Shown here in pieces: positions 426-35,380 of a DNA stretch of 64,000 nt. The translations under genes and the position numbers were made by a program. Source of the stretch: Cyanidioschyzon merolae (taxonomy: Eukaryota); NCBI GenBank assembly GCA_000091205.1, contig AP006491.2; one strand, 5' to 3'. The number at the start of each line of letters is the position of its first letter. Position 1 is the first letter of the stretch. The notes below the pieces were generated by a model. The model was not told the DNA's origin. It did not search any database and saw nothing but the letters and a program-made list of their open reading frames with translations.

Positions 426-857
426 GTGAATGAGGCCTGGATAGACCACGGGACAGAGCTGCATGAAGACGCAACTGGGCACTGCCAAGACCCAATCTAT
501 TGGCACCAGTATGCCGCAGAACTACCGCGCCTCGAACCGGTACCGGAATGGAACGACCCAATCTTCTGGCCTGAATCTGTTCGGGCCCTGTTAAGCTCAT
601 GCAACCGCAAAACACCTGGCATTGACGGTATCGCTGCCGAGTGGATGAAACTGGTGATCCCAAAATACGAGACAACAGGGACACCATCGATACCACGCCT
701 CAAGTCGACGCCCGTTGTGGTACGGCAACGCCGTTCTGTCTCCGTGCAGCGACCGCACCGGCGCTATAGGCGCTATTGCTGTCGCTTTCGGCAGGCACTA
801 GGCACACACGATAGGACGTATGAAACGACCAGAATATCCGAGATGAAGTATAGGTAA
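426..857 (+). mobile_element. Degenerate non-LTR (LINE-like) reverse-transcriptase fragment
   Basis: ORF 426..857 contains SCNRKTPGIDGIAAEWMKL followed by LVIPKYETTGTPSIPRL. These resemble RT motif 0/1 consensus (K.PG.DGI..E..K ; v.IPK....RPIsL) of non-LTR retrotransposon/retron-type reverse transcriptases. The rest of the ORF is not RT-like, so this is a truncated relic. Confidence 0.4.
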
Positions 858-959
858 TGTACCATGGAGGTAGGTGTAGATCGATGGATACTTCACCGCG
901 CACTGAAAAAACACACACAAAAAAAAGTAAGAAAAGAAAAATGCGCAGAATCGGAGAAC

Positions 960-1600
960 GCTGGCCTAAGTAAACGTTTTGTGAGTGGAAAAAAATTTGA
1001 TAATCGCCCATATCCCCTTGCGTGAGATTCCCGGGTACAGCGCAAACACGGCGCGTATCATGAAACGTTCGAGGTTCATCGTCACATGGTTCTTCAGGTT
1101 CGTCAGGTACTTGATGGCCCCGTATTCGTAAATATCCGCGTCACCTGTATACCGAGTACCATCGAAGCTGTAAAAGAGATGTTTTTCGTGGAGGACGTGC
1201 ACGCGTTCATTTTCCCTCCGCGCTTCCGCTGTACCAAGCATCAGGTGACGAATAAAGGTCTCGTCGAAAACTCGTTCGGAAGCTGGACCGTTTCCATGTG
1301 CGTCATTTCGGGATACATCTCCCCGCCAAATGCACTAGTCCTGACGACACCTGTATTATAGTCATGGAGTTCGGCTCAAAACGGTTTCGAATGGACTCTC
1401 GTAACTTTTTCTTGCACGGAACCTTGATCTGTCCAAGAAGACAGGCTTTCATAACCAGTTCGTTGTAGTGTGGTCTTTCTTGCAGCCATCGACGTAGGAC
1501 CTCCCTCCTTTCGGTCCTTCTTCTCTTCCTTTTCTTCTGGACTCGGTACTGTTTTTTGTTTTTTCTGGCAGCCAGCGACACCTAGGCCACCAGGATCCTC
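960..1600 (-). mobile_element. Truncated inverted copy of the N-terminal block of the TnpB/Fanzor-like repeat family (homologous to 12110..12690)
   Basis: Minus-strand ORFs 1303..1581 (VLRRWLQERPHYNELVMKACLLGQIKVPCKKKLRESIRNRFEP, KKRKRRRTERRE NLS-like tract) and 966..1241 (NLKNHVTMNLERFMIRAVFALYPGISRK) align with plus-strand 12013..12700 (LPQMLEERRRCDEMVVKACLRKQNKDPYKQALREAIRNRVES ; NLRNHLTKNLKRFVIRSIFALYPGLSRK). The copies have diverged and are frameshifted. Confidence 0.5.
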
Positions 1601-3189
1601 CACTTAATTCCCCATAGGTTTCCTACTTTATTTTTTTGAAAAGGAACGCTCTTTGAACGCTTATGTCATATAATGGGAAAAACACTTGAATACACTTGTT
1701 TGAGGTTTGAAACACGAATGAACTGAAAACTATGCTTTGCTACGACTACATCGCAAATCCAACTTGTTCGTTGGATCTACACACTCTATCTCGCCATGCG
1801 ATGCCGTTGTCATCCGTTCGACAAGGCCCCCAGCCACAGTGAACGCGCCTAATCTGGAGTCTCATGTCCCCCTAACAAGAAAACGTATTGTCAAGCTCGC
1901 GTTTCCCTTCAACGGCTACATTCGCGCCGTATCTCGTGACGGCCTGATCGCCCAGGTGCGCGTATCGAGTGCGCCACACAGAAAAAAGAACAGAGACTCT
2001 CGATTCACGAGCATGTAGATTTTGTTTTCCCTTTCGACGATAAACTTTGAAAGGAGAGAAAGCTTTCCGTATTTTAGAAACTTTACCTTTTACGCGTAAG
2101 ATCCCTAGAACTGTAAGAGTCTGCTAAGCTGGTGCTCGGTGTTCATCTAAAGTGGCTGGAGCAGCCGCGAGACCTGAGCAACTCGTCCCCAGAGCGGTTT
2201 ATTCCGGGACCAGGGGTGCTTAGGCAGCGTCTGCACGCCGCCCTGGTCGCAGCGTATCCAGTGGTAAGCCTAGACTGTTCTGTCTACGTGCCATGACCGC
2301 AGCGGCGCAATGGGGGCTACGGCGGGTGCTCACGGCATGCATTCGACACGCGATAGGGCGTGCGAAAGGACAATTATATCCGAGAAGAAGAATGGCTAAT
2401 GGAACGTGAAAGTAGAGTGCAACATGGTGGACGCTTTCCCCGAAGTCGCTGGCGGCGCGTCTCCATTCCATGCGAAAGTGCTGCACCGAGTTACTGGTAT
2501 CGATGACCCGAGTTCGATTAAACTTGAACAGTATATTGCTCGCCCTCTTCCTGCTTTTCGAATTTTAAAACTTTATTCCGATGGAAAGCCGCGGCATTCG
2601 AAAAGGGGCTATTGTGACTTACGCATTCTAACGAATATGCGGATCCTCGGCAGCGTTTTTGGAATGGCCTCCTCAACGCGTTACCACGGGAACTCTTTCA
2701 GTTCCGGGACGCGAGCTCATTTGCGAGACCCCCCGAGCGAGACTTCTTAAAATACCCGATACGATGATCCACCGCATACGCCCAAGTCTCCAAGCTTCCC
2801 TTTTTCTCACGATAAGTATGCTTCAACCATAAATGTTTCAAGGCGACCCGTTGACGCAGCAATGCACGTCACTAGATTGATGAGCAGAAAAATTCGACTT
2901 GCTCCACTGTGAGCATGTTCATGAGCTCGCACGGAAAGCTCTCTGAACTCATCAATTCAAATAATCGATTCTCTTCGAAAATGGACAAATGCTCCTCTAT
3001 TTGTGGCCATCAAGGAGGCCGCATTCGACAGCAGCACGATGCCTGTAATGGGATACGCTTCCAGAGCCATCCGCCTGCACAGTGTGAATGCAAAGGGGTC
3101 CTGCGCTCGGACCTCAGCCATCGCAGCGCTCGCTTCCTGCGGATAATGCGCAACCGTTTCGCATGATGGGGGCGTAGATGAACAGAGAT

Positions 3190-6304: not shown

Positions 6305-6362
6305 TTCTAGAGTGCCTGTACCAGCACGCCCGATTTGGTTTTGTTTGTTTTCCTGGCAGGAG
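6305..6362 (+). repeat. Copy 1 of a conserved 58-nt motif (stem-loop-capable, G/T-rich loop)
   Basis: ttctagagtGcctgtaccagcacgcccgAtttggttttgttTgttttcctggcaggag. It is identical at 55 of 58 positions to 21443..21500 in the same orientation, with unrelated flanks. GCCTGtaCCAG ... CTGGCAGG can pair. Confidence 0.5.
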
Positions 6363-7399
6363 GATCGAGTAGGATGACGAGGTCAGGACCCGTCTCGATG
6401 CTCTGGGTTCCTTTCCGATGAATGAGGACATTTTCTGCGCCTTATTTCGAGCGAATATTAGCGTCCAACTAGCGAAATCGGACAATCTCCGGCTGGAGTG
6501 CATGACATCGTGCACGGGACGCCAACGGTATCCGCAGTGCAGAGACAACAAGCGTGGATTCAAGTGTCTGCTCAATATGTAGGAAATAGAAATGACGAAC
6601 ATGACGTGTCGTTTGGTCGAGGCCCCTGGCTCTGGAGGTGCTGCAACGCGCTGAACCTGCACTTTTGCTCCGTCGACCAGCGCGCACAAAGTGAGCAGGA
6701 ACTGAATCTTTCCATCTCCCATCGATGCAATCCAGACGATTTGAGCGCATCACGAGCACAAGGGCACGTTGAGCGTGCTAGACGACAACAGCAACATCGT
6801 GAAGCAATGACGAATGCACCAGATGATGGAAAGTTAGTTGACCATCCGTTTATGGCGAGGCAGTCGGGGGCAAGAGACTTGCGATGATATGACTCTCCGC
6901 GCAACAGTACGCGCCATGACTTGATGCATCGTGACAGGAAGGCTCCCATCACGAGCGAGGGATGTCTCGTGCTTCCCGGGCGGACGTCCGTCGGCTCGGT
7001 ATCCAGCGAGCTTTCGCAGGAATCGTTTCGTACCAAGCGTGTGCGTTGTGCTGCGATGCGGAAGACTTGCGCTCACGAAATCAGTGCCTGGGAGAGGGTC
7101 ATAGATTCCCGTCTGGCTCAAGGCCCTGGCATGATACGGGGTCACCAATGCGGCAAGGCTGGTACGTTCTATGCATACATCGGGAACGGTTTCCCAGGTA
7201 ATCGGTGAACAAGAATGGTGCCATATCATTCAGTAGTACTGAATATTGGTATATATAGGCAGAACGTTTCACCGTAAACCTCTGATGGATTCCTAAAGCA
7301 ACGTCAGACTGAATCGGATCGGGTCCGTTCAGATAACCCGAGTGTTTACGCTCAACATGAGGGTCTCTTCTCCTTGTCATCAACATGAGCGTTTTGCGC

Positions 7400-8860: not shown

Positions 8861-11341
8861 TCAGAGGACCTGTGGCACATCCACGGGACAAGGACATGAT
8901 ACGCGGGCAGCGGGTACCGGTCCTGGCCCTGGTTCCGCTGACGACGGCACCTCAGCCATAACTTGCGTACTGCGACGACGAAAGCGACGTGCTTGGTGGC
9001 ACACGCTGCGCACCATGGTGCCGCTCTCGGGTCCAAACAGATGCCGAGATATACCATCACGAAGCCCTGTTGCAGGACGTTCACAGAATGAGGCAGGTAC
9101 AGCCTGTGCTTCCCACTCAGTCCAAGTCGGGGAACGATTCAGCGCACCAACAAGCCCAGCGAGACGACGAGTCGCAGCCGTCCGAGCCACTTTTTCTATA
9201 TCCTCGACAGGCTCATGCCTGGTGTTGGTACCGCTCAGCGAACCAACAGCTGACGTACTCGAGGAGCGTGTGCGCACACCAGGTCCAGAGTGGCTCGCTG
9301 CATCCGCAGATGACGATCCGAGCGCTTGCGTTCCAGAAAGTGTTCGTGGACGCGACGCTGACGCCGTCACCGATCGGACATCGTCGAGGACTTTTCGAAT
9401 CTCTGACAAGTCCGTAGCATCGGGCAGCGCGCTGCGGCGTGTGCGTTTCTGTGGCGTTTCCGGCGGTGACATCACCGGCGTCGCCAGCCCTGCAGCCGGT
9501 GACGACTCCACATCCGAACTCGGGCACGCTGCCGTTGGTGCACCAGAATTCCGAGACCCGCCTGCGAGCGGCTGGGATAACGGCGTGCTCGACTTGACTG
9601 TCCGCTCAGGCGTTTTCAGCGCTGCTGCTGCTGCTGCTGCTGCACCTTTCTGTGAACGCAATGACCAGTGCGGGCCTGCCGTTTGCGCATGCGTCGAGAG
9701 CTCATCCAACATGGATGCGCTCGCAGGTGAATGACCTGATGAGGGAGTTTCGCACCTCAGGTCTCGCAATTTGGGTTCTATCTGGACCAGGTAATGCTGT
9801 TGGGCTCCGATCACAGATCCGGGGCGGCACAGCCGACACCAGGCAATGGCCTCCGTTGCCGTAAAGCCGTACATGTGCATCAAAGCACAGCACATAAGCG
9901 TTCCAGTGCGTCCAAGGCCGGCCTTGCAGTGAACCGCAACGGCACCCGGTTCATCCGCGCAAATCGCCAGAAAACGCTGGACGATATTCCAGTCCGGACA
10001 TGCACCGTCCGCAAAGTACAGATCGTAGTGACGAAATCCCGCTTGGCGAAAAACACGCGCGTCATAGCGTCGCCGGTTCAGACGTACCACAGCAGTGACG
10101 CCAAACTGCTGAAAGAGGCGAATAAAGTACTCGGGAGCACAGCCCACGCCGATGTCTGTTGCTTCCGGGCAGCTCGTCGGACCCGCGAACGCCAGCAGCT
10201 TACCCGGAACAATCCAGTTCAGGTCGCCGTTGTGTACTTGCTCCCAAAGCTCATATGATTCGATATCGAACGCATCTGGTGCGAAGAGGTGGCACACATT
10301 GGTCGCCCGATGCCAAGCGCTGATGCAGTCAAAGACGCCCAAAGGGAACGAGGATTCCGGACCAGCAGATGCATCGCGAAAGAAAACCAAAGAGCTTTTG
10401 AGACGCTGGAGTTTTGCATCGGCCTGTTCGGGGAGATCTCCAAGGCGAAGAACGCGATAGGCGCCCACCAGGGCTGCTGCGTTCGTCAAAGACTCTAGAT
10501 CATCTGTACAGAGCATGATGGCGATAGGAGACGCCCTGCCGGGGACATTGTCCTCCACGAAAGATCCTTCATCTCCGTCGCTAACAACAGTTTTCGGAGC
10601 GTATGCAAGATTGTGTTTCACTCCCTCGCCTTGGACTGCGTTGCCTCGCAGTGCTCCGTCGCACATACCCCGAGGCATCAAGACACCGTCCGTGCGTCCT
10701 TGCCAGAGATGCAGCTCTCGGACGATACTTTCAATACGCTGAATAAACCGCATGGTCTGCGCGAGATTGTATGGTCCAAAGTCGTTACAGAACGCCTCGT
10801 ACACAAGGTCGTCCTGGACGGAAAACAAAAGTCCAGCCAGGTGTCGAGTTCGGTTCGAGCGAGCGCCGCCACCTGCGGTGTCCGCAGCGTCCGCCTGCGG
10901 CCGGAGCGGCGTGCCGTTCGCAGTCGCTTCTGCGAAGAGCCCCAACAGCGTCGGCGGTGCTAACAACCGACAGTCCGGAGTGCGTCTTTCGCAGCATCCT
11001 CGATCGATGCTTTCAGATACTGGCCGGTCTTCAGGGTCTCGGGCGCGTACCGACCACGGAACCAGGTACACGAGACCAGGAACAACCTCAGCATAGAGCT
11101 CTAGACGAAGATGCGATCGCAGTTCTGGCCTCTGCTCCAAGGCAGAACGCAGCCAAGGAGACATCCAAGCCCATTCTTCATATGCACAGTGGGTTCTTTG
11201 TTCGTCGCCCTCAAAGCAACTGCTGCTTCGCTGCTCTGAGGGTTCCTCAGCTCCGCCCGGTCCCGCGCTTGTTCGCACGCGCTCCGACACAGACTGCGCC
11301 CTGCTCTGCTGGCGGGTGCGATGCGCAACACCGACCATCAT
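8861..11341 (-). CDS. CDC14: Dual-specificity protein phosphatase CDC14 with a long Ser/Thr/Ala-rich C-terminal tail
   Basis: N-terminal A-domain (YEAFCNDFGPYNLAQTMRFIQRI) and the catalytic B-domain P-loop AVAVHCKAGLGRTGTLMCCALMHMYGFTATEAIAWCRLCRPGSVIGAQQHYL are both present. The N-terminus has about 100 aa of extra sequence, so the start could be downstream. Confidence 0.8.
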   Translation of the reverse strand: MMVGVAHRTRQQSRAQSVSERVRTSAGPGGAEEPSEQRSSSCFEGDEQRTHCAYEEWAWMSPWLRSALEQRPELRSHLRLELYAEVVPGLVYLVPWSVRARDPEDRPVSESIDRGCCERRTPDCRLLAPPTLLGLFAEATANGTPLRPQADAADTAGGGARSNRTRHLAGLLFSVQDDLVYEAFCNDFGPYNLAQTMRFIQRIESIVRELHLWQGRTDGVLMPRGMCDGALRGNAVQGEGVKHNLAYAPKTVVSDGDEGSFVEDNVPGRASPIAIMLCTDDLESLTNAAALVGAYRVLRLGDLPEQADAKLQRLKSSLVFFRDASAGPESSFPLGVFDCISAWHRATNVCHLFAPDAFDIESYELWEQVHNGDLNWIVPGKLLAFAGPTSCPEATDIGVGCAPEYFIRLFQQFGVTAVVRLNRRRYDARVFRQAGFRHYDLYFADGACPDWNIVQRFLAICADEPGAVAVHCKAGLGRTGTLMCCALMHMYGFTATEAIAWCRLCRPGSVIGAQQHYLVQIEPKLRDLRCETPSSGHSPASASMLDELSTHAQTAGPHWSLRSQKGAAAAAAAALKTPERTVKSSTPLSQPLAGGSRNSGAPTAACPSSDVESSPAAGLATPVMSPPETPQKRTRRSALPDATDLSEIRKVLDDVRSVTASASRPRTLSGTQALGSSSADAASHSGPGVRTRSSSTSAVGSLSGTNTRHEPVEDIEKVARTAATRRLAGLVGALNRSPTWTEWEAQAVPASFCERPATGLRDGISRHLFGPESGTMVRSVCHQARRFRRRSTQVMAEVPSSAEPGPGPVPAARVSCPCPVDVPQVL

Positions 11342-12012
11342 CTCCGTCGTGCCTGTGCAGCTACTGAAAGCTGATAAGCACAGGACAAAAGTTCAGAGGC
11401 TACAAACACGTCTTTGCATCCACGTCCGAGCACACATTCGTCAGGGACGCTGCAAAATAGACCCCCGATGGATCCGCCTCCGATGCCGGGGAGTGTAGGC
11501 CCCGGTGCGCTTCGACGGCCTTGTTTCGTTGTTCGCAGCCGCAGCTCGATGCGCGATCTCCGGCGGATGCGCGCCTGCCGTGGACGTAACGGTCGCGCGA
11601 TGCTACTGGGCCTTGCATCGCATACGACTCAAATGTACAGAAATGTTCAAATTGATACGGCGATCGTTACGAGCGCGTGTGCGTGCGATTTGGCTGTGAT
11701 GGAAAAACGTGTCCATGGACTGTGGATGGCCCAAATTGCGGGATAGGTGAGCATTGACATTCGGGAAAGCGTCCATCATGCTGCGCAATACTCACGCCCA
11801 AGTTCTATTACCTATGCTTCCTATTTTCTATATGGTGCGCTTGATATTTGCACCTCCAGATCTGACATGCATTGAACACGTCGCGCATGTCGCCGCTTTA
11901 GGGAAACGCGATACTGATCATCAGCGTGACGCTCGAACGAACAAGTTGTATTTGCGTCAAATTCGTACCAAAGTAGAGTGTTTATCCCAATCGTGTTTCA
12001 ACCATCAAGTAC

Positions 12013-13941
12013 GTGTATTCAAGTGGTTATTTGCAGTTTGTATCAGAAGCGTTCAAAGAGCGATATAAAAAAATCAAAAAATGGAAAGTTTCGGAAGAGG
12101 AAGAGGAGGATCCTGGAGGCGGAGTATCACCGGCTGGCAGAAAAAAACAAAAGACAGTGCAGAGCGAAGAAGAACAGGAAAAGACGAAGAAGCAAAAAGG
12201 AGAGGCTCTACCTCAAATGCTGGAAGAAAGACGACGGTGTGACGAGATGGTAGTGAAAGCCTGTCTTCGTAAACAGAACAAAGATCCGTACAAGCAGGCG
12301 TTGCGGGAGGCCATTAGAAACCGTGTTGAGTCGTACTGTAGGAGTATTCGTAACGCTTCTTTTGGACATATGCATATAGCGAAGGAGATGTATCGTAACG
12401 TGACGCACATGGAAACAGTCGAGGTTCCGGATGAATTTTTCAACGAGAACTTATTCGTCGCTTGCTGGTTGGCACAGGGGAAGCTTCGACGAAAACAATG
12501 AGCGAGTGCATGCTCTCCACGAACATTGCGCCGAATTTCGCTTCAGCGATACTCGATACAAGGATGTCCGGCATATTTACACCTACGAGCCGATGTAGTA
12601 CCCGACGAACCTGAGGAACCATTTGACCAAGAACCTCAAACGCTTCGTGATACGCTCCATCTTTGCACTATACCCGGGCCTCTCTCGCAAAGTGATTGAG
12701 GATCATAGTCGATGGCATCGTTAACGATAGTAAGAATGAAGAGGAGAACGAATTCGTTGAGAAGAAGACATTACACAGGGGACAGAATGAAGCTTCTGGA
12801 ATCCGTGCGGCTATTCAAGAGCACCGTGTGGTCGTGGGCCTGTTCAACCCAGCAGAAATGGTATCCGATATGGAATAAGATTAAGAAAGATGCTATCCCC
12901 TAATCCTGCGGTTTTTCGTGTTTTTGGACCGAGAACTCGAACGTAAGGCGGAGATGGAGCTGGGTGTCGTAAAATGAAGAGTCGGAGAAACGGAAGGCTG
13001 CCCTAATGGGAACGCGCTTCAACGGCGTTCCATTGTGGAACATCAAGTCGCACATTGTGACCATCAACTCCAGAGTCCTTCACAGCTTAATGAAAGAGGT
13101 CACCCCAGTGTTCGATGTCCATGAGGAGGAGTTCAGCAAAGTGACAAGCCGCGGAGCGGACTTTCGAGCCTTCCGGGAATTCATGGAAGCTCAGGCTGCT
13201 CATGACTGCGAGATGTGGAAATGGTCCGGAAAGCCCCGGAGGGCCCGTCAGCATGTGAACCTGTATTGTGGCAAACAGCGTGCATTCACCAACTTCTTCA
13301 ATCAGTTGAGCGTCCTCAAGGTGGTCAAGAGTCAAAGGATTGTAATATCGTACGGAGCAGGGCGCTTTGTACCCGGAAGACGGAGCGCACCCGCTCCATC
13401 GACACGAGCGAACAAGGAGTGCGCATACCTGTTTATTCCATTTCCGATAGATGAGTTCCGAACGTCCTATGTGCACCATGAGCTGAGATGTGCATTCCAG
13501 AGAATCGAGTTGGAGAAGTGTCAGCAGAGCCCTGAGCAAATAGAAAAATACTGTGCGCTAACGGAAGTGCAAATGGAAAGGAGGGCGAAAGTTCGACGGC
13601 TACTCGCATTAGAGAGTACAATCAACGGCAAGAAACGTACGGAGTTTGTGAATCGTCAATTTCACGCTGTTATCACAATAATGAGATGTGCGGTGCTGGA
13701 GACGAGACCCGAGGAGTTGACGCGAACCATCTCTGTGGGGCAGCTCCTCAAGGTCGCATTGTACGGAGAGAAGTTGAAACCAGTAGTTGCAGGCCGGTCA
13801 AAAAAGGCTGGGAGGCGTCTGCACGTCGGTGGGAGACGTATTGTCTACGTCGGGCGGTTTGCAGCTCGCCACCACAGTACACCCGTTATGCAGCGTACGC
13901 CGACTGAAACGCAATCGCTTCTTTGTCACACAATTTTGTAA
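12013..13941 (+). mobile_element. Longest copy of a TnpB/Fanzor-like (RuvC/Zn-ribbon, OMEGA-family) element; degenerate and frameshifted, likely non-autonomous
   Basis: Adjacent same-strand ORFs 12013..12501, roughly 12600..12900 and 13006..13941 form one broken reading frame with NLS-like K/R tracts. The C-terminal part reads RIVISYGAGRF ... FIPFPIDEFRTSYVHHELRC ... NRQFHAVITI. Compare TnpB/Fanzor ...vDP.YTSq.Cs.CG... and RuvC-III hRD.NAA.NI. The Cys to His and Asp to Gln substitutions suggest an inactivated copy. The paralogue at 34658..34891 retains RDFDAAFNV. Confidence 0.45.
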
Positions 13942-14429
13942 GCATAAAGTTGAAATCGCTCCTTGAAGCATGCACTCGTGCACTCTGAATTTTGGGTATT
14001 GCCCCAGCGTTATCAAAATTGCCCCTTGGTGGATGGTTTTGCAGCTGCCTCCTTTTCTCTCCATCATCTCCGCGTTTGAAAACGTCGGTCTCTCGAGTCC
14101 CTACAGCTCTGCGGTCCGCAATCAAAGGTTCTTGATGGCAGCGTGCAAGTCCTTATTTCCCAGCTTCCAGGTGCAATCGACACCTTCTATTCACAGGCGA
14201 AAGTTGCGATACACGCATCGCTTGACATTTTCATTCGTTTTTTTGGACAGGTTCGGTGCTTCCTACGCAGCGGTGACATTAGAATGCTATCGGATGCTCC
14301 TACGCGTCCACCAATTTTCCTCATGCTCTGACCACCGACCTATGGCGCGTAAAGACTTGAGTCATCGCTCGGCACATACCATGGACGGCTAGACAAGGCG
14401 ATTCGCCTCGCGCTCCTCTGATTCCGAGC

Positions 14430-14850
14430 CCCGTGTTGTACGCTACGATGACGGGGTTCTTCCGGGCGATCCCTTCGGAGACTACTTTGTCCAGTGCACA
14501 CGCGAGCGTATGCTGTCCTCTTCAAGGGCGTATTTGTAGAACGCAATGCTGTTCACGATGGAACGAGTACCGGAAGCGAAAAATTCAGACTGTAGAAAAA
14601 CGTGACCCAAGAACTTCGATCCTGCTGCGTGCCCTTTGTGCAAAAGCGACGGTGCGCCCTCCAATGGAATCCATCTCGACGATGACTCAGGCCCGAGTCC
14701 GAGACTCTTTTCCATCGAATCACAAGAACTGGGAGCCCCTGTGACCATATCCCGTGATACACGTCATGCTCGTGTCGATTACCATGTCGTCGAGGGCTAC
14801 AAAGAGAAGAAGCATCAAATTTCGAACAGAGTCGATTATATGACGTGAGC
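14430..14850 (+). repeat. Fragment of repeat family C, about 640 bp 5' of MetRS
   Basis: Nucleotide-level homology of 14500..14720 to 7830..8050 (gtagaacgcaatgctgttcacgatggaacgagtaccggaagc vs gtggaacgcaatgttgtccttgatgaaacaagtaccgagaagc ; cccgagtccgagactcttttc vs tccgagtccgagacgctctttt). Residues 14433.. match the 3235..3456 copy. Confidence 0.4.
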
Positions 14851-15490
14851 CATTCACTTTTCGTTAGGCCTGAGCCCCCAGAGAGGCTTCCAAGGTTCGA
14901 AGCCGATCATGCGTCCGCGTCAACCCAGCGGAACGGAATCCTGGTCCCAGACGGTGCTCTGAACGAGAAAGAGTGAAAATTTGACGAGTGCATGATTGGT
15001 GGACGGTGCGCGTAAGGAGATATGTGTAGTCGTCTTCGCATGTAATGGATCATGATTCCTGATATTTTACGATTCCGTGTTCGTGGGCGTCGCGAGACAT
15101 CCTGATTCCGCAGACGTAACGCACTCCAGCGGCAACGCGTCGAATGACCCATTCCGATACGACGACAGCGCTTCTCCAAACGACGTATGATTCCATAATC
15201 CCTTCTCGCCGCACTTCGAATGTGGCGTCTGTGCGCCTAACCGATTTCGGAAATTATCGACAGACCGGAGCAAAGCGAGCAGTTCAGTGTCCCATTCTCA
15301 TTGGACCCGGGCCTCGGCACCGTCGACAAACAGTATGACGCAACCTCGTATGGACGTCGCCCGGCTCATGCCGCAACGCGACGATCGATCAAGGCCGTGG
15401 TCTGGACGATCGTTTGCGTCTGCAGCCTGCCGTAGTTTGTTTGTTTGTTTTGTACTTCCACAGGCGACGTGACCTTGTGCTTCGCGGTAC

Positions 15491-17959
15491 ATGTCTGCTG
15501 AGAGCGACCTGGCTGATGATTTGGACCGGCAGGCCTCATTGACGTCATCGAGGACGAAGAAGATACCCATTCAAGGAACTCGAAACGTCCTCGTTACGTC
15601 CGCGTTACCGTACGTCAACAACGTGCCGCACCTGGGAAACCTCATCGGTGCTGTGCTCTCCGCTGACGTCTACGCGCGCTACCTACGTCAGTGTGGAGTC
15701 AATGTGCTCTACATCTGTGGCACTGATGAGTACGGCACCGCCACAGAAACAAAAGCGAGAGAGGAAGGCGTATCGCCAAAGGCGCTTTGTGACAAGTACC
15801 ACGAACTGCACCGACACATCTACCAGTGGTTCGACATACGCTTTGATCACTTTGGACGAACATCTATCCCTCAGCAGACAGCCATCTGTCAGGAGATATT
15901 CTGGGATGTGTACAGAAACGGCTTCGTCGTCGAGGACACCGTCGAACAGCTCTACGACGCGGAGGCGGGTATGTTCCTCGCAGACCGCTATGTGCGGGGC
16001 ACGTGCCCGCACTGCGGCTACGCTGAGGCGCAAGGAGACCAGTGTGACGCGTGCGGGAACCTTCTGAACCCGACGGAACTGTTGGATCCTCGTTCCGCAC
16101 TGACCGGAAGCGTCCCAGTGCGCCGCACGTCCCGCCACCTTTTCCTGGACCTTCCGCGGCTGCGTGACGAACTGGAGGCGTGGATTGAGCGCTCTGCAGC
16201 TCGGGGGCAATGGAGCGAAAATGCCCTCACGATGACGCGGAGTTGGTTGCGTGATGGTCTCAAAAAAAGATGTATCACAAGGGATCTGCGTTGGGGCGTT
16301 CCAGTTCCACTAGATGGATTCCAAGACAAAGTTTTCTACGTCTGGTTCGATGCTCCGATTGGCTACCTGAGCATCACTTCGGACTACATGGGCGACAACG
16401 AGAGCTGGCGCTGCTGGTGGCAGCAGCCAGACGATGTTGAACTCATTCAGTTCATGGGCAAGGACAATACACCATTCCATACGATCATTTTCCCGGGAAC
16501 GCTACTCGCTACCCGGCGTCCGTTCACCATGCTTTGTCGCTTATCGACGACAGAATATCTGAACTATGAGAGCGGTAAGTTCAGCAAAAGCCGCGGTACT
16601 GGCGTCTTTGGTGACAGCGCATCCGAGACGGGTATACCCGCTTATGTGTGGCGTTATTATTTGGTGGCAAATCGACCAGAGCAAGCAGATTCTGTCTTTA
16701 CATGGACCGATCTGGCTGCAAAGAATAACAACGAATTGCTTGCGAACATTGGCAACGTCGTCAGCCGCGTGGTTGCTTTTGTTCAGAACCAAATGGGAGG
16801 CGTGCTGCCGGCGCTCGCGGACGCCTGGTCACCAGCGCCGCTCGATGAACGCTTGTTCGAGCAGGTTACGGCGGAGTTGCAGGTTTTTCATCAGGCAATG
16901 GCGAATATCGGCTTGAAGGCAGCGCTGCGCTCGAGCATGTCCATCGGAAGACTCGCGAATCAGTACTTGCAGGAAACAAAGCCGTGGGACCTCTTCAAAC
17001 AGGACTCGAAACGCGCAGACGGTGTTCGTGTTCTCGTCATCGCGAGTGCAGTTATCCGCTTGCTGGCTGTGACCCTCGAGCCGTTCCTGGGGTCGGGCTT
17101 CGCGAGGCTGGTTTTCCAACAAATCGGTGTACCCCATGCCGATGAGACAAATCGAATTCCGCAGCGTTTCGATCGATCGCAGCTTCAGGAATGGAACTAT
17201 GGCACCGAATCATTTGCGTTTGGCAAACCACAGCACCTGTTCACGAAGCTGGAACCCAGCTTCATAGAAGAGCTCCGTCGCCATTTCGCGGGACATGTTT
17301 CTGCCAACGAAGGCTCGGCATCGAGTGGTGTGGCATCTTCCGACAGCGAGCTACCTCTGGAACTTCGTCTCGGACGGATTATGCAGTGCAACAAGACAGC
17401 GCAGTCCGATCAATTGTATCAGTTGGTGCTGGATCTAGGCCCCGAGGAGGGATCTCGCCAAGCAGCGGCAAATCTCGGACATGCGTTTCCGATGACCAGC
17501 GACTTGCTCGGCCGCTTCGTTGTCGTATGCTGTAATGTGGAGCGCGCGGTGCTAGGCGGTGTGCAAAGCGAGGCTATGGTGCTCGTTGCAGAGAAGAAGG
17601 CGCGCACAGCGCTCCTAACAGTGCGCCACGCGAATGAGGCTATGCTAGGGGCAAGACTGCTCCCATGGTCAGCGTCTGAATCAGGAAATCCGCACACGGC
17701 ACTGATGAACGCAGCTCCGCTGTCACCCCTGGATCGGAAGGGTCTCCAGAGCCGTCTGAAGGAACTTCGTGTTCGCGACGACGGTGTCGTGATTTGGAAG
17801 CAAAACAAGCCGCTGGCAGCTGTCGTCCGAGATCCCGATGATCCACGTCCTCTTGGAACATCTAGCGACCCCGCGATGAAGCCGTCTACCGCATGGGTCG
17901 TAGTTAGCGCCGAAGCATCCCTGGATGTAGGATTCTGGAATAACGCACGTGTACGGTAG
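15491..17959 (+). CDS. MARS: Methionine--tRNA ligase (cytosolic type) with a C-terminal EMAP-II/Arc1p-like tRNA-binding domain
   Basis: HIGH-region LPYVNNVPHLGNLIG and KMSKS-equivalent KFSKSRG are present, together with the zinc knuckle CPHCGYAEAQGDQCDACG. The C-terminus LELRLGRIMQCNKTAQSDQLYQLVLDLGPEE...VVVCCNV is tRNA-binding-domain-like. The ORF is 822 aa with no interruption. Confidence 0.9.
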   Translation: MSAESDLADDLDRQASLTSSRTKKIPIQGTRNVLVTSALPYVNNVPHLGNLIGAVLSADVYARYLRQCGVNVLYICGTDEYGTATETKAREEGVSPKALCDKYHELHRHIYQWFDIRFDHFGRTSIPQQTAICQEIFWDVYRNGFVVEDTVEQLYDAEAGMFLADRYVRGTCPHCGYAEAQGDQCDACGNLLNPTELLDPRSALTGSVPVRRTSRHLFLDLPRLRDELEAWIERSAARGQWSENALTMTRSWLRDGLKKRCITRDLRWGVPVPLDGFQDKVFYVWFDAPIGYLSITSDYMGDNESWRCWWQQPDDVELIQFMGKDNTPFHTIIFPGTLLATRRPFTMLCRLSTTEYLNYESGKFSKSRGTGVFGDSASETGIPAYVWRYYLVANRPEQADSVFTWTDLAAKNNNELLANIGNVVSRVVAFVQNQMGGVLPALADAWSPAPLDERLFEQVTAELQVFHQAMANIGLKAALRSSMSIGRLANQYLQETKPWDLFKQDSKRADGVRVLVIASAVIRLLAVTLEPFLGSGFARLVFQQIGVPHADETNRIPQRFDRSQLQEWNYGTESFAFGKPQHLFTKLEPSFIEELRRHFAGHVSANEGSASSGVASSDSELPLELRLGRIMQCNKTAQSDQLYQLVLDLGPEEGSRQAAANLGHAFPMTSDLLGRFVVVCCNVERAVLGGVQSEAMVLVAEKKARTALLTVRHANEAMLGARLLPWSASESGNPHTALMNAAPLSPLDRKGLQSRLKELRVRDDGVVIWKQNKPLAAVVRDPDDPRPLGTSSDPAMKPSTAWVVVSAEASLDVGFWNNARVR

Positions 17960-19699
17960 CGCCGTTCGCATTCGATGATCGACGAGCTGCTACCTACCTT
18001 AGGATACCTAAACACCGCACTATTCAATCTCGCCCCGAGGATGGAATGTTCGAAGCGATCGAGCAAGAGCTGTTGACCCGGGCTCTGCAGCCTGAACACA
18101 AGTATGTGGACTAGAGCATGCGCTCTTCCATCTGTTGAAGTCGTCCATCATCGCGGATACTACAATTCTGTTGTTCGACTCGCTCCTGAACAGGACTGGC
18201 TATTCACATGGCAATCAATGGAAAAGCGGAGACCGACACTATCAAGAGCGGCTTGAGTCGTGCCCGGCATTCACCCGTTACGAGCACGATGCGACGCATG
18301 CGCGTCTGGCGAGGCCTCTACCAAGCGCGCACTGCAGACGGAACGCACTGCACGGGAGCCTGTCCACGCAGGGCGACGTTTTCGGTGGTGCACGTCGTTC
18401 TACCAGGCCCCTGAGCGCGCTTCGAACGATGTCGCCCTCCAAGATCCGCAGGATGCCGAGCGACTTGACCCGCGCGTACTGAGGTAAACGACGCGGTCCT
18501 AGACTGTAGCAGGTATCCGCGAATCACGCAAGCCTAAAACGCCAGTGCTGTAACTGCCGAGACTTTCCAGACGCATGTACGGATGAGCAAACTCGTTCAT
18601 CAAGTAGGACAGGGCCCAAAGATGCCAGCATTTGCACCAATCCAACATGTACGCGGTGTGCCGCTAGCCTCGAGTGCGTCCTCTCCGTCTGCTACGATGC
18701 GGTCGCTATGATTGTACAAAGGGTGTGCGCGGCTCTGCATGAGCATGCTTCCGCGACGACATATGATGACATTCATGAATCGTAGGCTGTTGGAATCTGA
18801 ACACAAGTGAAGAAAGGATAGACACTCTCCTGGATGCCGATTTTCATCCCGGAATCTCCGATCCCTGGTCAGTGTCGATGCAATACCCATCAAAACAATG
18901 ACTGGTGTGTGCGCGTACATCCGTAAACGTGCATGCTTCTATGCACTGGGAGCTCGCCTATATCCAGGTCACATGAACACGGAATACTGAACTGCTCGCG
19001 CTGTTACACCCTCGATATTGTTTCCGAAACTGTTATAGATGTCCCGACTCGACACACGAATTGCAGCAGTGGGGATTGCGGATGCCTAGGGCATTGCAGG
19101 ATTCCGGGCCTTGCTTCCCGAGTCGATCCTTTGACGCCCTGCCGCTGGAATTTCGTACGGTCATCGGAATCAAGATGACTCGCGTCGTCCGCGAACAAGG
19201 ATGCGTCAACGAAGAGAGTTCATGTTCAAATGCATATGTGCCAGCCTGAACGCCTCTCCATGCCTCATGTGTATCGTGGCTAGTTCATACAATTTTCAAG
19301 TTATCGGTTTTTCTGTTTCACGGCAACTTGTGGACACAGCAACGCTCACCGCTGGATTGAAGAGGAAAGCATGCGGCATCGTCACTTAAAGTCGTGTTCA
19401 CACGCGCACGACGAAATTTCACGGATCTCTTCGTGTCAACCGAGAATCCATTTCGATCGAAGGACAGCGTGTACCCGATTGTGGCCGTCGGAACCAACGG
19501 CATTCGACAGTAGCATGATGCCTCTCACTAGATATGCTACCAGAAGCGCTGGGCCCCTCTGGTTCCATGGAAAACCGTCTTGCACTAGAGTCATCGCAAC
19601 GATCTCTTCCAGCGGGGAGTGTGTCATTACGCTCTACGAAGATGCGTAGAAGGATCGATATTTCTCGATCTGATCCCCTGTCTGAATTCTTCTTCCGGG

Positions 19700-21442: not shown

Positions 21443-21500
21443 TTCTAGAGTACCTGTACCAGCACGCCCGTTTTGGTTTTGTTCGTTTTCCTGGCAGGAG
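21443..21500 (+). repeat. Copy 2 of the conserved 58-nt motif, about 250 bp 3' of NDUFS7
   Basis: ttctagagtAcctgtaccagcacgcccgTtttggttttgttCgttttcctggcaggag. It matches 6305..6362 at 55 of 58 positions. Confidence 0.5.
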
Positions 21501-23953
21501 TCCAGTGAATGCAATGTATCCTGTGGATCGAAGAAAGGTCCTGGAGAGACTCTATGCTGTAACTGCTTGCTTGAGAAAAAGGCGACCGTACCCGTCCAGC
21601 GTAGCCATTCTACGCTCATCGTAGGGATTAACTGGCCTCCTCGTTCTCCGCAAGACGAGCGCCGTGCGCCCGAAACAGTACGTGTCACTCTCTATCGATA
21701 TGACGGTTTTATGGTCGATCCATTCCATACTGTCTCTAAAAGATATAATTGAAGTAGCCGCATGGTCTGAAGCTACCGTGCTGTTGATGCGTCCGGTGAC
21801 CAGGAGACAGCAACGGACCGAGAAGGAAGCACGCTTCTGCGAGAGACCTTCGCACATGAGATGCCACACACTTGACTCTGGTAGTGCGCTGCGAACGCTG
21901 GGTACAGGGCCGACGGGTGTTCGTCTCACACGCTGAGACTGCATTCGTGAGAAACGGTAGACCTGTATATACGTACTCAGAAATGAGCAGGCCGTCGTTT
22001 CTAAAGTAGAGACAAATGAGCGTTCCGAAAACATCATCTCCAGCGGCGATGCAGTCTTGTAGTCGCCTGCGAATCCCAAACCGAATAGAATCGCATAGCA
22101 CTTGAGCTTTCATCGAAACGCTTTGCGGCTCCTGCTTCCCACATGCTTCCGTCCTGTTATTAGAAAACGTCGCTTCCCATGACTCAAGAGCTATCAAATA
22201 GAGCGCTGCTGCTTCTGGCGTTCATCTGGTCTCCGTACCGGCCTCGGCTCAGTGGTTCAGTCTAGCCGAAGGCATCCTCTCGGCAGGCAAACGCCATGTT
22301 CATGATCGTAGAACAGTCGCTAAGTCGTTCGTGTCCACGATATCCCTCTTGGACAACTCGCTGCAAGCCTTCACCAGCGGGTGAGCTGCTGCTTTGCTTC
22401 TCTGTCAGTGCGCGGGAGGGAGCGGAAAGCCGCGCTTCTGTCTAGAGATACGTTCGCGCCGAAGCAACCGACGAAAACGCACTCGAAGAACCGCAGAGAC
22501 GCACAGACGTAGGAACTGCGGGGTTCGGAAACCGCGTTTAGCCGGCGCGTCCTAGTCCTGAGGGAAAACTTGGATATAGATTCCAGCGAACACATGCATC
22601 CTCCATCGCCAAGTCCAAAACGAAGACGAAGAAACCACCAGACAAAGGAGAAGAAGACCCGCCCCTAAACGCGGACGCAATTCGACAAGAAAGGAAACGT
22701 TCGGGGCGCGATGGTTAGTCTGAAGCGGTTGTCAGCGCCATCCTCCAACATAAAACACGAACGGGGAGTATCCTGCGAAAAGTGACATGCAGGAGTCCAT
22801 CAGGGGTCGCTTGACGCACCTCGTCGAGCACTTGCTCCCAGAAGTGGTGGACGCCGGGCTTCCAGCCGTCCATATTCTTCGCGAATTCTTGAGCCAATGC
22901 TTCGTGCAACTACACAGCTGTGATGCTGCTGAGAAGATACAAAACGGCATGAATTGCCAGGATTCCATGGTATCGGCAGTCAGGCATCATGAACGCTACG
23001 AGGCACACCAACAACTGGAATGATATCATCAGGACCGAACTTGACCTTCTGAAATACGTATCGAGCTGGGAGCTATGCCCTGTACGCTTCACCGAGAGCG
23101 TCCATGGTCGTCCAGCTCGCTCATTAGGACAAAACTTGGCAGAATACATGAGAGCACGCTGGTGTCGCCAACAGTTCCGATTGCGTGGAAGCAAGAAGCA
23201 TGCATTCGTCAGCCTGAAGAATGAGCTCGAGACAGAAGCAAACGACACGTCGCGTCCTTTTTATTGGTATCCTACGGCGCTGGCGTACCGTACCGTCAAC
23301 GCTGCACGCGTGCACCGTCGACCAGACCATGCAACGAGTGCAGGAATCAATTCAACGGATTCCCGTCGATGCACTCAGGACGGTACCACCGCATCATGAG
23401 CATGGATTCACGCTAATTCATGCACAAAAGAGAAATCTGAAACGGAAACGAATGCATGAGATGGTGTACGCTACGCTGATCCAACACCAGACGGCGATGC
23501 AATGGTGTATCGAAGCGTCTGGCGATGGGTTGCGTTCCACGAGCGGGGACGCGCAGGCACCTGCTGCACTCAAACTCGAACGCTTCGATCCTCATCCTGA
23601 ACGATTTCGCAATGCCTTAGCACCCAAAGGCTTTGGGTCTAGCCAACTTTCAAGATCTTGGTTTAGGATTCTCAGTAGGCATTGTGTTGCTACGCGGAAG
23701 ACTGGTGATGAAAAGAATACTGGGGCCAGGAAACAGGGTATTCGACGCTCGCCTGGATCCGGGTACTGGTGTGTGGTAGCGCTCAGCCAGCGCGAAACAC
23801 CGCAGCGGCATACGTACATCGACACGGGAAACAATTTTCCTGGGCAATCGATGAACGACCATGATGTTCCATGAGTCCACGGTACCGAGTATACCACGCT
23901 TCGACCTGGTCAACGCATCTCTCTGCCCTGGAAAGCATTCCCATGGAATACGA

Positions 23954-33614: not shown

Positions 33615-34652
33615 TCAGGGGCCTGAAAGTATCCAGATTCGAGCATGCGTGGCGGCTCGTGACTCTCGTAGACGACCAAGATGCCGAAAAACATTCATCA
33701 GCGCTCTGCCCGTAGTATCCTGCTTCAGTGATGCAAAGGACTTGATATCTGTCTCGGAGAAAAAGTAGTGCCCGCGAGTCTCGTCCGTTTCCATGTCCTC
33801 ATAGCGGCAGCGCTGATCAAGCTGCGCAGAAGTGAGCTCATGCTTTGGACGACGCAAAAGCGCATACTTATAACGCAAGATGCTCTCAATATCGCTGATC
33901 GCTCTATGCAGACGCTCTATGGTGACGCGTCCGCGTATGTGCCCCGGAACTTGCTGGAGCGTCTCCTCAGTCACTGGCTCGACGCGTGGAGCGGCGTCAA
34001 CCGCCGGCGCTGCTCGGGGAAACGAGTCTCGCTTCCGTGGAACAGGCGAGACACTGTCGTTTACCCTGCCAGTGGGTGCTCCTTCTGATCCAGGTGGCTG
34101 CTGCGCGCTCGGTGGTGAAGCGTCCTCCGTACCAGCGCAAGTGCGCCCGGCGCGTCGCCGCTGCTGGAGCGCCACCTGCAAACGACGCCACTGCTGCCGC
34201 TGCTCTCGTACTCGGCGACAAAGCTGCTTCATTTGTCCGGCATATCGCAAGTCCTCCTCTAGCGCCTCTTTCAGCCAGTAGAAGTGCGTCTCCGCTGCTT
34301 GGAGCTGCGCCTCGGTGGCGTACAAGTGCTCATCCAACGCTGGCACTGCCTCAGCTGAGCGCATCAGCGCCAACCACTTGAGAGTACGCACCCGCCGGAC
34401 AAGAGTCGCAGCATCGGCACCCAGTTGACTCCCAATACCGAGTAGTCGTTGCTCATCGGGATGACCCTCAACCGGGACCTCTGAGCGTTCCCCGCGAGTC
34501 GACAGCATATGCAAAAGGTCCGACACGCGCCAGGGATTTTGAATGTCGCGGCCGCAATGGACGGTGCTTTGTTCCAATGCCGCACACGTCGATGAAACAG
34601 TCGATGCTCCACGAGCACGCAGGGTATATGAATACCGACGTGCAGACGCCAA
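33615..34652 (-). CDS. SKA1: Spindle and kinetochore-associated protein 1 (SKA1) homologue
   Basis: The C-terminal microtubule-binding domain aligns with human SKA1: TIERLHRAISDIESILRYKYALLRRPKHELTSAQLDQRCRYEDMETDETRGHYFFSETDIKSFASLKQDTTGRALMNVFRHLGRLRESRAATHARIWIL vs LNETVDKINTALTEKYKLLHQPKKSMNSVTRNLYHRFIDEETKDTKGRYFIVEADIKEFTTLKADKKFHVLLNILRHCRRLSEVRGGGLTRYVI. The N-terminal 50 to 90 aa may be over-called. Confidence 0.7.
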   Translation of the reverse strand: MASARRYSYTLRARGASTVSSTCAALEQSTVHCGRDIQNPWRVSDLLHMLSTRGERSEVPVEGHPDEQRLLGIGSQLGADAATLVRRVRTLKWLALMRSAEAVPALDEHLYATEAQLQAAETHFYWLKEALEEDLRYAGQMKQLCRRVREQRQQWRRLQVALQQRRRAGRTCAGTEDASPPSAQQPPGSEGAPTGRVNDSVSPVPRKRDSFPRAAPAVDAAPRVEPVTEETLQQVPGHIRGRVTIERLHRAISDIESILRYKYALLRRPKHELTSAQLDQRCRYEDMETDETRGHYFFSETDIKSFASLKQDTTGRALMNVFRHLGRLRESRAATHARIWILSGP

Positions 34653-34657
34653 CCAGT

Positions 34658-34950
34658 CTATGTCGACCGGCCAGCTACTAGTAGCTCCAACTTCTCCTTA
34701 TACGCCTCGAGTATCAGAGGCTGCCCCATAAAGTTGGTTCGCGCCAGCTCCTCGGGTCTCTTCTCCAGCACTGCACATCCCCTGACATTGAAGGCGGCGT
34801 CGAAGTCCCGGTACACAAATACGATACGTTTCTTCCCGTTGTTTGCACTTACGAATGCAAGTAGGCCTCGATTTTGGGCGCTCCATTCCATTTGCTCCTA
34901 CGTCAGCGCTGCGAACTTTTCTACATGCGCAGGGCTCCGCTTGCACTTCT
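34658..34950 (-). mobile_element. Fragment of the TnpB/Fanzor-like element retaining an RuvC-III-like RDxxAAxN motif, abutting the SKA1 start
   Basis: ORF 34658..34891 reads VSANNGKKRIVFVYRDFDAAFNVRGCAVLEKRPEELART. This is paralogous to 13006..13941 (INGKKRTEFVNRQFHAVITIMRCAVLETRPEELTRT). A second frame, 34698..34946 (MCSAGEETRGAGANQLYGAAS), matches 13686..13907 (MCGAGDETRGVDANHLCGAAP). An in-frame stop lies immediately upstream, so it is a fragment. Confidence 0.45.
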
Positions 34951-35380
34951 CCGTCTCGACTTTCTGAGGTGTACGCCCCAGCTCATTCCTGATTTTCTTG
35001 AAACTGAATGTATTTGTTCAAGACTTTGGGTGAAGACCTCCCGAGAAAGAGAGAAGGGCTTGCGGAAGAGAGGCGAAATTTGCCCTGGTGTCTCATTGTG
35101 TGCTGAACGAATCAGCGGTTCGCCCAGTGGAGCGATCAGTACGTTTCACGATAGAGAACATTTCCTCGCAGAGGATGCGCCACGATGAGCATGTAGGAAT
35201 GAAAAGCATCTCTACCTCAATAGAATCGGTAAAGGCTCGAACGCAAGTGGAATGGTCAAATGCCAAGTTGTCCAATAGAAGGAACTTCGCCGGACGTCAG
35301 TGACAGGTCTTCAACGATTCGACAAAGCGGGTGGTGCTGTTGTACGGGCCTTCACTACGACCGAAACTAAGGCCGCAAAA

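Follow-up and report, generated by a model that had tools for sequence, protein, structure and literature searches.

The region is almost certainly a decayed copy of CMe-1A, a Fanzor1-bearing transposable element of Cyanidioschyzon merolae. It lies in a window of 64 kb, by which is meant the whole stretch of DNA that was analysed. Fanzor1 proteins are the eukaryotic homologues of the bacterial RNA-guided TnpB/Cas12-type RuvC nucleases. The host is C. merolae 10D, because the adjoining MetRS and CDC14-like proteins match BAM79987.1 and BAM79986.1 of that strain exactly in a protein look-up. The initial annotation had proposed a dispersed, mostly dead family of TnpB/Fanzor type, and consensus alignment, the family profile, the fold of a relative and the RuvC triad all bear this out. 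The CMe-1A family itself was published by Bao and Jurka (2013, Mob DNA 4:12, PMC3627910); it has been known since then and is not a new discovery.

The published consensus measures 3169 bp and the CMe-1 protein 734 aa (supplement, PMC3627910). About 150 copies are reported, roughly 80% identical to the consensus; the element lacks terminal inverted repeats (TIRs), and its 5′ 635 bp are common to TE-N2_CMe at 95% identity (PMC3627910). In blastn, the main-locus copy aligns with the consensus at 76.8–81.6% nucleotide identity across 2.2 kb, in three segments: 11698–11822 (consensus 2–115, 76.8%), 11826–13135 (consensus 638–1950, 81.6%) and 13135–13883 (consensus 2394–3138, 77.7%), with the final ~30 nt assigned by eye. 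This level fits the ~80% reported for genomic copies, and at the protein level the segments are 63–75% identical to CMe-1 (tblastn). Copy number, missing TIRs and the 5′ end shared with TE-N2_CMe also fit one and the same family. That CMe-1A is a repeated mobile element is evident from five consensus-matching pieces within the window and from 179 confirmed loci in metagenome contigs. The copy differs from the consensus by two internal deletions, frameshifts, stops and a D-to-Q change (Table 1).

The reading frame of the pseudogene runs in the order +1, +2, +3, +1, +1 with in-frame stops (tblastn). Its kinship is strong all the same: it matches family profiles with E down to 4e-86 in a six-frame hmmsearch, phmmer gives matches at E 2e-134, and the window translation matches a 60-sequence family profile at E 1e-47. 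The strings RIVISYGAGRF, IDEFRTSYVHHELRC and NRQFHAVITI, singled out in the initial annotation, are present in the ORF at 13006–13941, in the reading frame with homology to Fanzor proteins. The 443-bp deletion takes out the RuvC-I motif GADPGNTN, including its catalytic Asp; with Gln at the RuvC-III position, the copy keeps only the Glu of the D/E/D triad. The copy is judged dead and without element function because RuvC-I is deleted, the RuvC-III Asp has become Gln, and the coding sequence is interrupted by several in-frame stops and by three or more frameshifts.

Table 1. CMe-1A remnants and Fanzor1-like relics in the 64-kb window
Feature	Position	Strand	Basis and remarks
Whole decayed CMe-1A copy	11697..~13913	+	blastn with the 3169-bp consensus; 3′ terminus may reach ~13925
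5′ module remnant	11697..11822	+	blastn; full module is consensus 1–635, here 116–637 deleted
Fanzor1 (CMe-1) pseudogene	12109..13845	+	tblastn; matches residues 7–349 and 492–734 of the 734-aa protein
443-bp deletion junction	13135	+	consensus 1951–2393, residues 350–491, lost
RuvC-II catalytic Glu, kept in IDEFRTS	13453..13455	+	tblastn; column E in 60/60 relatives
RuvC-III catalytic Asp replaced by Gln	13657..13659	+	NRQFHAVITI vs consensus NRDFNAAINI; column D in 59/60 relatives
Non-coding 3′ terminal segment, degenerate here; candidate omega-RNA scaffold or transposon right end	13846..13913	+	
Second copy of CMe-1A, limited to the 5′ half (consensus 61–1525)	997..2440	-	blastn, tblastn, hmmsearch
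N-terminal Fanzor1 pseudogene within second copy	~999-1648	-	
Isolated 5′-module fragment, TE-N2_CMe-like (consensus 70–262)	692..888	-	blastn
CMe-1A 3′ fragment (consensus 2737–3092), C-terminal Fanzor1 region	34634..35017	-	blastn, hmmsearch, tblastn
59-bp 5′-module fragment (consensus 17–75)	18817..18875	-	blastn, weak, E 8e-6
Very divergent Fanzor1-like relic around RuvC-II	6382..6780	+	hmmsearch, A2 profile, E 1.8e-9
Very divergent Fanzor1-like relic	22935..23502	+	hmmsearch, E 5e-15 (A2) and 6e-13 (A4); tblastn

The RuvC-I-less form might itself be a propagated derivative, either a non-autonomous element mobilised in trans or a nuclease-dead RNA-guided DNA-binding protein like TldR, the bacterial TnpB-derived regulators. 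The breakpoints (consensus 1950|2394) are identical in the window copy and in L085, an environmental copy, though the two are just 72.9% identical to each other; they also have derived residues in common past the junction (FRAFREFME-QAAHD-EMWK), and P0001, the ORF of L085, remains open for 562 aa. However, the junction occurs in only 1 of 317 fetched proteins, frameshifts and stops run throughout the window copy, and P0001 has also lost its RuvC-II Glu (DMFRTS), as neutral decay would predict. The same deletion could also arise twice through microhomology at its breakpoints. A propagated derivative is distinctly unlikely.

That 12013–13941 is instead a live Fanzor gene, its two long ORFs serving as exons or being joined by a programmed frameshift, is highly improbable. 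The ORFs at 12013–12501 and 13006–13941 do lie in the same frame, and C. merolae has very few introns, but the homologous frame between them passes through +2 and +3 with in-frame stops, and the losses in RuvC-I and RuvC-III count against it as well. The copy is moreover ~20% diverged from the consensus, and the exact ORF product is absent from a collection of 15 billion proteins.

The decayed copy belongs to a family whose Fanzor1 character can be followed in better-preserved members. Public data hold 284 homologous proteins, the full-length ones carrying DPGNTN, DEFRTS and NRDFNAAINI; 3008 cluster representatives found at E<=1e-3 are annotated as DUF8286 only. The catalytic D/E/D residues occur in 60/60, 60/60 and 59/60 relatives at RuvC-I, RuvC-II and RuvC-III, respectively, and among 36 environmental copies codon constraint is visible as third positions conserved at 0.81–0.84 vs 0.90–0.94 for first and second positions. 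A profile of the 60 relatives matches Fanzor1 entries in the PDB (PpFz1, 9CF0, at 1.9e-25; SpuFz1, 8GKH, at 1.5e-17; GtFz1, 9CER, at 8.5e-14). An AlphaFold model of the relative P0114, which is 41% identical and not CMe-1 itself, reaches pLDDT 87.4 and pTM 0.86. In a Foldseek search of the PDB, Fanzor1 chains fill its top seven places (TM up to 0.72, E 7e-17 to 2e-14), and Cas12f and Cas12o come next; the RuvC-fold check proposed in the initial annotation, applied to this relative, finds Fanzor1 structures first. The Pfam check proposed with it gave a divided result: PF07282 (Cas12f1-like TNB) is matched by 28 of the 60 relatives, whereas a Pfam scan of the window ORFs themselves gave no match and the close homologues gave just a weak PF07282 match (E 0.12).

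A coincidental resemblance, with the repeat encoding an unrelated transposon protein or nothing, can be virtually discounted: the missing Pfam match of the window ORFs, the shallow A1 profile built from 13 close sequences, with no Fanzor match in the PDB, a first AlphaFold model of low confidence (pLDDT 41, from 20 sequences) and a motif set at 19954–20253 that is indeed chance would all suit it, but it is refuted by three concordant results, namely the PDB matches of the deep profile, the outcome of the fold search and the direct alignment to the Fanzor1 consensus of 2013. The good profile–PDB match and the confident model came once diverse representative sequences were added.

One feature sets the family apart. 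The C4 zinc finger between RuvC-II and RuvC-III is conserved in SpuFz1 and ISDra2 TnpB, and it forms part of the Fanzor family motif of Bao and Jurka (2013, PMC3627910). The initial annotation likewise read the conserved block as a Zn-ribbon end, which does not hold: CMe-1 has THHELGC...EKC in this segment with no CxxC pair, any CxxC at all is found in only 4 of the 60 relatives, and the C4 finger is missing in the other 56. Nor does the HHELRC string of the main copy record Cys-to-His decay, as had been supposed, since it reflects the family consensus THHELGC. On these alignments the CMe-1 lineage has lost the finger and is best described as an atypical Fanzor1 with a degenerate one. Fanzor1 membership is nevertheless kept, because the authors of the family placed CMe-1 there and because sequence homology and modelled fold are judged decisive despite the missing finger.

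The CMe-1 lineage is part of a large Fanzor1 branch, made up of the 3008 DUF8286 representatives, which has lost the C4 finger and keeps an invariant D/E/D triad and codon-level constraint. Were its members active, they would be RNA-guided nucleases that do without a zinc finger and travel on an element lacking a transposase gene; that they are active in this way, and that the RuvC-I-less form has been propagated in addition, seems unlikely.

The initial annotation grouped seven loci under one family. Three of them belong together: 960–1600(-), 12013–13941(+) and 34658–34950(-). The first of these is homologous to the 5′ half of the main copy far beyond chance (11933–12696 matches 1775–1012(-), 72% nt, E 3e-105), and the last, recognised by VYRDFDAAFNV, is truly homologous too (13478–13830 matches 34986–34634(-), 73% nt, E 3e-55); the fragment containing it retains the RuvC-III motif YRDFDAAFNV but has an in-frame stop. 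The other four loci (3190–3460, 7400–8150, 14430–14850 and 19700–20400) are an unrelated repeat. They match only 13927–14870, which is outside the element, and neither the CMe-1A consensus nor Fanzor profiles find them (six-frame hmmsearch, filters off). The proposed zinc ribbon CHGC-22-CTHVIC-12-NAAVDVL stands literally at 19954–20253(+), yet it is a chance string with no relevant Pfam match, and the 19700–20400 locus resembles the main locus on the opposite strand only (13927–14626 to 20325–19648). The homology between copies had also been called coding-level; all three frames score alike, which makes it DNA-level repeat similarity.

The full extent of the main copy (11697..~13913), the fragments at 997–2440(-), 692–888(-) and 18817–18875(-), and the two divergent relics are additional to what had been listed. 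The relic at 6382–6780(+) is invisible to a search with the CMe-1A DNA consensus and shows 31% identity to P0114 (tblastn, E 1e-8); in that at 22935..23502(+) IPVDALRT is what is left of the RuvC-II motif. Both may be remnants of another Fanzor1 lineage in C. merolae, older than CMe-1A. The stretch 6373–8477 is collinear with 13066–15142, which could stem from an old duplication or from an insertion context that is repeated.

Better-preserved copies exist elsewhere, as the initial annotation had predicted of an intact master copy: environmental relatives (P0057) are intact or nearly so, and C. merolae itself carries intact CMe-1A copies according to Bao and Jurka (2013, PMC3627910). The environmental copies help to delimit the right end. 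Codon-level constraint runs up to the published end of the ORF. Over the last ~92 nt, codon periodicity is absent from 36 environmental copies, yet conservation stands at 74% vs 37% in the flank, and it extends ~12 nt beyond the published CMe-1A 3′ end, the extension TTTGTTGTTG following the consensus terminus GAAAGGCG. The sequence from 13927 to 14870 was considered as a 3′ UTR of the element and ruled out: the published consensus ends at ~13913, host genes begin 200–500 bp past the ORF in two environmental loci (L002, L003), and multi-copy conservation stops there.

The 3′ 181 nt of the consensus fold with z = -3.1. With its default settings, RNAalifold yields no consensus structure for the element 3′ end; in a relaxed structure 85% of cells are paired vs 84% in shuffles, its compensatory counts equal those of slid controls, and its covariation is no higher than in these controls. 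These figures do not speak for a structure. An Rfam scan gave no match at the element, and tRNA scans likewise gave nothing. A T-rich GATT...TTTT(C) tract recurs before the element 5′ end. The idea of a terminal direct repeat or self-targeted insertion was dropped, since 5′ flanks set against the 3′ end of the element gave a weak signal (mean z = 1.0).

CMe-1A is an element of ~3.2 kb whose single ORF encodes a Fanzor1 protein. An intact copy would most likely make a protein of ~730–780 aa that acts in the nucleus. Its partner would be an omega-RNA, bound by the protein and copied from the end of the ORF together with the non-coding right end of ~90 nt, and a guide drawn from flanking sequence would direct its D/E/D RuvC site to cut matching DNA. 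In TnpB systems, such cleavage promotes transposon retention or homing. CMe-1A lacks a transposase gene: there is a single ORF, with no second gene in the ~2.7–3.2-kb unit in the window or in L001–L003. The predicted nuclear localisation draws solely on basic N-terminal tracts in frame, GRKKQKTV in the window and GKKRKTV plus KTKKQKREARRQR in CMe-1. Of the two tracts cited in the initial annotation as nuclear localisation signals, GRKKQKTV belongs to the Fanzor frame and is the counterpart of GKKRKTV, whereas the KKRKRRR-like one (RKRKRRI / NRKRRRSKK) lies outside the Fanzor frame. RNA guidance, omega-RNA and nuclear action would follow by analogy with Fanzor1 and TnpB (Saito et al. 2023, PMC10432273).

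For annotation, the main locus and several neighbouring intergenic pieces are CMe-1A relics and should be masked, not called as genes. Reading motifs straight from the letters picked up a genuine RuvC-II/RuvC-III signature; it over-reached in taking up a wrong-strand "zinc ribbon" and in lumping two different repeats. Points for Fanzor specialists are the C4 loss, the conserved non-coding right end of ~90 nt and the same-breakpoint deletion in two diverged copies.

Compared with the solved Fanzor1 proteins (SpuFz1, PpFz1 and GtFz1), the CMe-1 family shows profile homology at E 1e-25 to 1e-13, shares the D/E/D motifs (DPG..., DEFRTS, NRD.NAA.NI) and N-terminal basic tracts, and likewise sits on a repeated mobile element with an ORF that almost reaches the right end. 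The modelled CMe-1 relative has the same overall fold over ~600–700 residues (TM 0.5–0.7). Sequence identity is just 13–15%, however, and CMe-1, like most of its clade, lacks the CCCC zinc finger in the NUC/TNB domain. To our knowledge, no transposase superfamily is associated with CMe-1A. Omega-RNA, TAM and activity are predicted for the family solely by likeness to the solved Fanzor1 proteins.

Bacterial TnpB (IS200/IS605 and IS607; ISDra2) and Cas12f have the same RuvC-based architecture. The CMe-1 family differs from them in its eukaryotic nuclear host, in a much longer N-terminal REC-like half, and in being without a TnpA partner and without the zinc finger. CMe-1 is a homologue of TnpB and not a member of the IS200/IS605 or IS607 TnpB group, because its host is eukaryotic and its element has a single ORF with no adjacent TnpA (Y1 or serine recombinase).

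The repeat that begins at window position ~11,698 belongs to CMe-1A, a Fanzor1 family of Cyanidioschyzon merolae known since 2013 and the only one reported there for this species (Bao and Jurka 2013, PMC3627910). That study describes about 150 copies, each ~80% identical to the consensus, and an element of ~3 kb without TIRs, whose TSDs were not defined and whose 5' 635 bp are 95% identical to TE-N2_CMe; intact copies are still present (PMC3627910). The RNA-guided nuclease activity of Fanzor1 was demonstrated in 2023 (Saito et al. 2023, PMC10432273). Two sequences from the supplement of PMC3627910, the consensus (3169 bp) and the protein CMe-1 (734 aa), were aligned to the window. The main copy ends near 13913, its final ~30 nt being degenerate. 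Exactly matching C. merolae ORFs flank it, one on each side, so the window (G+C ~55%) is nuclear DNA of this nearly intron-less red alga. The initial annotation had proposed a TnpB/Fanzor-type repeat family from the raw sequence alone, and consensus alignment, profile and fold all agree with it.

Coordinates of CMe-1A pieces, repeat X and flanking genes in the window
Feature	Position	Strand	Correspondence
Main copy, 5' piece	11698-11822	+	CMe-1A consensus 2-115
Main copy, middle piece	11826-13135	+	CMe-1A consensus 638-1950, 81.6%
Main copy, 3' piece	13135-13883	+	CMe-1A consensus 2394-3138, 77.7%
Second CMe-1A piece	2440-997	-	consensus 61-1525
CMe-1A piece	888-692	-	consensus 70-262
CMe-1A piece	34986-34634	-	consensus 2737-3092
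CMe-1A piece	18875-18817	-	consensus 17-75
Degenerate repeat X, directly 3' of main copy	14053-14868	+	
Repeat X	7422-8198	+	
Repeat X	19648-20325	-	
Repeat X	3240-3383	-	
CDC14-like phosphatase BAM79986.1, ORF	8861-11341	-	exact match, C. merolae 10D protein
Methionine-tRNA ligase BAM79987.1, ORF	15491-17959		exact match, C. merolae 10D protein

The CMe-1-matching reading of the main copy changes frame repeatedly: +1 (12109-12495), +2 (12479-12697), +3 (12705-12965, with stops inside), +1 (12973-13137) and +1 (13120-13845). CMe-1 residues 350-491, which hold the RuvC-I motif GADPGNTN, are missing; the RuvC-II Glu is retained (IDEFRTS, 13453-13455), and Gln stands in place of the RuvC-III Asp (NRQFHAVITI, 13657-13659). 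The main copy is a dead pseudogene, and the CMe-1A-family copies within the window are dead relics, as had been anticipated for most copies. The peptide strings quoted earlier do exist in the window; among the NLS-like strings, one was wrong. Rfam gives a weak match, below threshold, to the C/D-box snoRNA family snoZ163 inside the element's 5' region (11929-12014(-), E 0.25, 21.3 bits where the gathering score is 39); it is probably due to chance.

Window 13135 and L085:1481, a metagenome-contig locus, both carry the 443-bp deletion of RuvC-I (consensus 1951-2393), with exactly matching breakpoints. Since these two copies are only 72.9% identical despite their common breakpoints, the deletion probably predates their divergence. 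The junction occurs in 1 of 317 fetched proteins, and the L085 ORF (P0001, 562 aa) is still open, with DMFRTS instead of DEFRTS. The RuvC-I-less form may have persisted or spread.

Window self-comparison pairs 11933-12696 with 1775-1012(-) (72% nt, E 3e-105), 13478-13830 with 34986-34634(-) (73% nt, E 3e-55), and the stretch 13927-14870 with 7422-8198(+), 20325-19648(-) and 3383-3240(-). In comparisons between copies no reading frame scores better than the other two. What the copies share is therefore the similarity of DNA repeats in decay and not coding conservation, contrary to the coding-level homology first claimed. A six-frame hmmsearch of the window with family profiles, filters off, found Fanzor-like coding only at 996-1536(-), 6382-6780(+), 12169-13764(+), 22935-23502(+) and 34697-35011(-). 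Three of the seven loci originally assigned to the family (960..1600, 12013..13941 and 34658..34950) thus stand. The other four (3190-3460, 7400-8150, 14430-14850 and 19700-20400) gave no Fanzor-like coding in this search and are a different repeat that adjoins the element. The motif CHGC-22-CTHVIC-12-NAAVDVL (19954-20253(+)) is read from one strand, whereas the only homology of its locus is on the other; it has no relevant Pfam match and is a chance string.

The ORFs of repeat X have no Pfam match. The stretches 15039-15142 and 8374-8477 also resemble each other. Over their whole length 6373-8477 and 13066-15142 are collinear, always ~6650 bp apart, which points either to a segmental duplication of some age or to a context in which insertions recur. 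A 58-nt element, TTCTAGAGTGCCTGTACCAGCACGCCCGATTTGGTTTTGTTTGTTTTCCTGGCAGGAG, occurs twice (6305-6362 and 21443-21500, both (+), 95% identity), with sharp limits where similarity ends abruptly at either side; neither Rfam nor tRNA searches match it, and the 85 fetched loci lack it. Internal tandem or overlapping direct repeats of 80-88% identity were seen in the self-comparison at 26801-27169 and 58513-58878.

The segments 6382-6780(+) and 22935-23502(+) are very divergent Fanzor1-like relics: aa identity to the relative P0114 and to CMe-1 is ~30-36%, the RuvC-II site reads IPVDALRT, and a search with the CMe-1A consensus DNA misses them. Because Bao and Jurka give only one Fanzor1 family for C. 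merolae, they may be what is left of another, older lineage.

Element anatomy was read from 85 environmental loci, and conservation from 36 non-redundant copies. In the coding region, conservation by codon position is 0.91, 0.94 and 0.83, the expected excess of third-position variation, and this pattern holds for as far as the published ORF extends. The next ~92 nt show no periodicity yet are 74% conserved, and the flank drops to 37%; conservation runs ~12 nt (TTTGTTGTTG) beyond the published consensus end. A T-rich GATT...TTTT(C) immediately precedes the 5' end, and the element has one ORF and no transposase. Compared with shuffles, the 3' 181 nt of the consensus have a more stable fold (z = -3.1, -67.1 kcal/mol). 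RNAalifold at default settings gave no structure at the 3' end, and covariation in a relaxed structure was not above controls. An omega-RNA there is plausible on the analogy of Fanzor1 (Saito et al. 2023, PMC10432273). The P0057-type copy (L001/L006) is the sole nearly intact one among the fetched loci. Seven environmental loci (L082:1363-1442, also L035, L041, L053, L067, L077 and L015) carry an extra copy of the element's final 60-80 nt ~750 nt upstream of the core, followed by a common ~700-nt segment missing from the published consensus; remnants in tandem, nested remnants or a longer variant could account for this.

The family's place in Fanzor1 was tested through relatives. The conceptual translation of the main copy retrieved 16 homologues (best E 2e-134), and full-length ones have DADPGNTNI, VDEFRTS and NRDFNAAINI. 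Local Pfam searches gave no match for window ORFs, the precomputed label was PF26935 (DUF8286) only, and no PDB relative came up with a profile built from 13 close sequences. HMMER, run over all 1.84 billion cluster representatives, yielded 3008 relatives, from which 60 diverse full-length ones were drawn. Their profile matched Fanzor1 of Parasitella (9cf0, E 1.9e-25), Spizellomyces (8gkh, 1.5e-17) and Guillardia (9cer, 8.5e-14), and 28 of the 60 matched PF07282 (Cas12f1-like TNB). An AlphaFold model built with this alignment for P0114, a relative 41% identical to the CMe-1 group rather than CMe-1 itself (pLDDT 87.4, pTM 0.86), had Fanzor1 chains as its top seven Foldseek matches in the PDB (E 7e-17 to 2e-14, TM up to 0.72), followed by Cas12o and Cas12f. 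The catalytic columns are D in 60/60, E in 60/60 and D in 59/60 relatives.

The branch holding CMe-1 (relatives of P0114 and P0016 among the 3008 representatives) carries DUF8286 as its only Pfam label; the C4 finger is mostly lost, D/E/D is kept and an RGLLWC.ST motif is conserved. The zinc ribbon initially ascribed to the family does not hold: CMe-1 has no C4 finger, reading THHELGC...EKC without CxxC, and only 4/60 relatives have any CxxC in this segment. The supposed Cys-to-His decay is not decay, HHELRC being the family's own consensus. In contrast, the C4 zinc finger between RuvC-II and RuvC-III is a defining feature of Fanzor1: it is part of the family motif (Bao and Jurka 2013, PMC3627910), and both SpuFz1 and ISDra2 TnpB conserve it.
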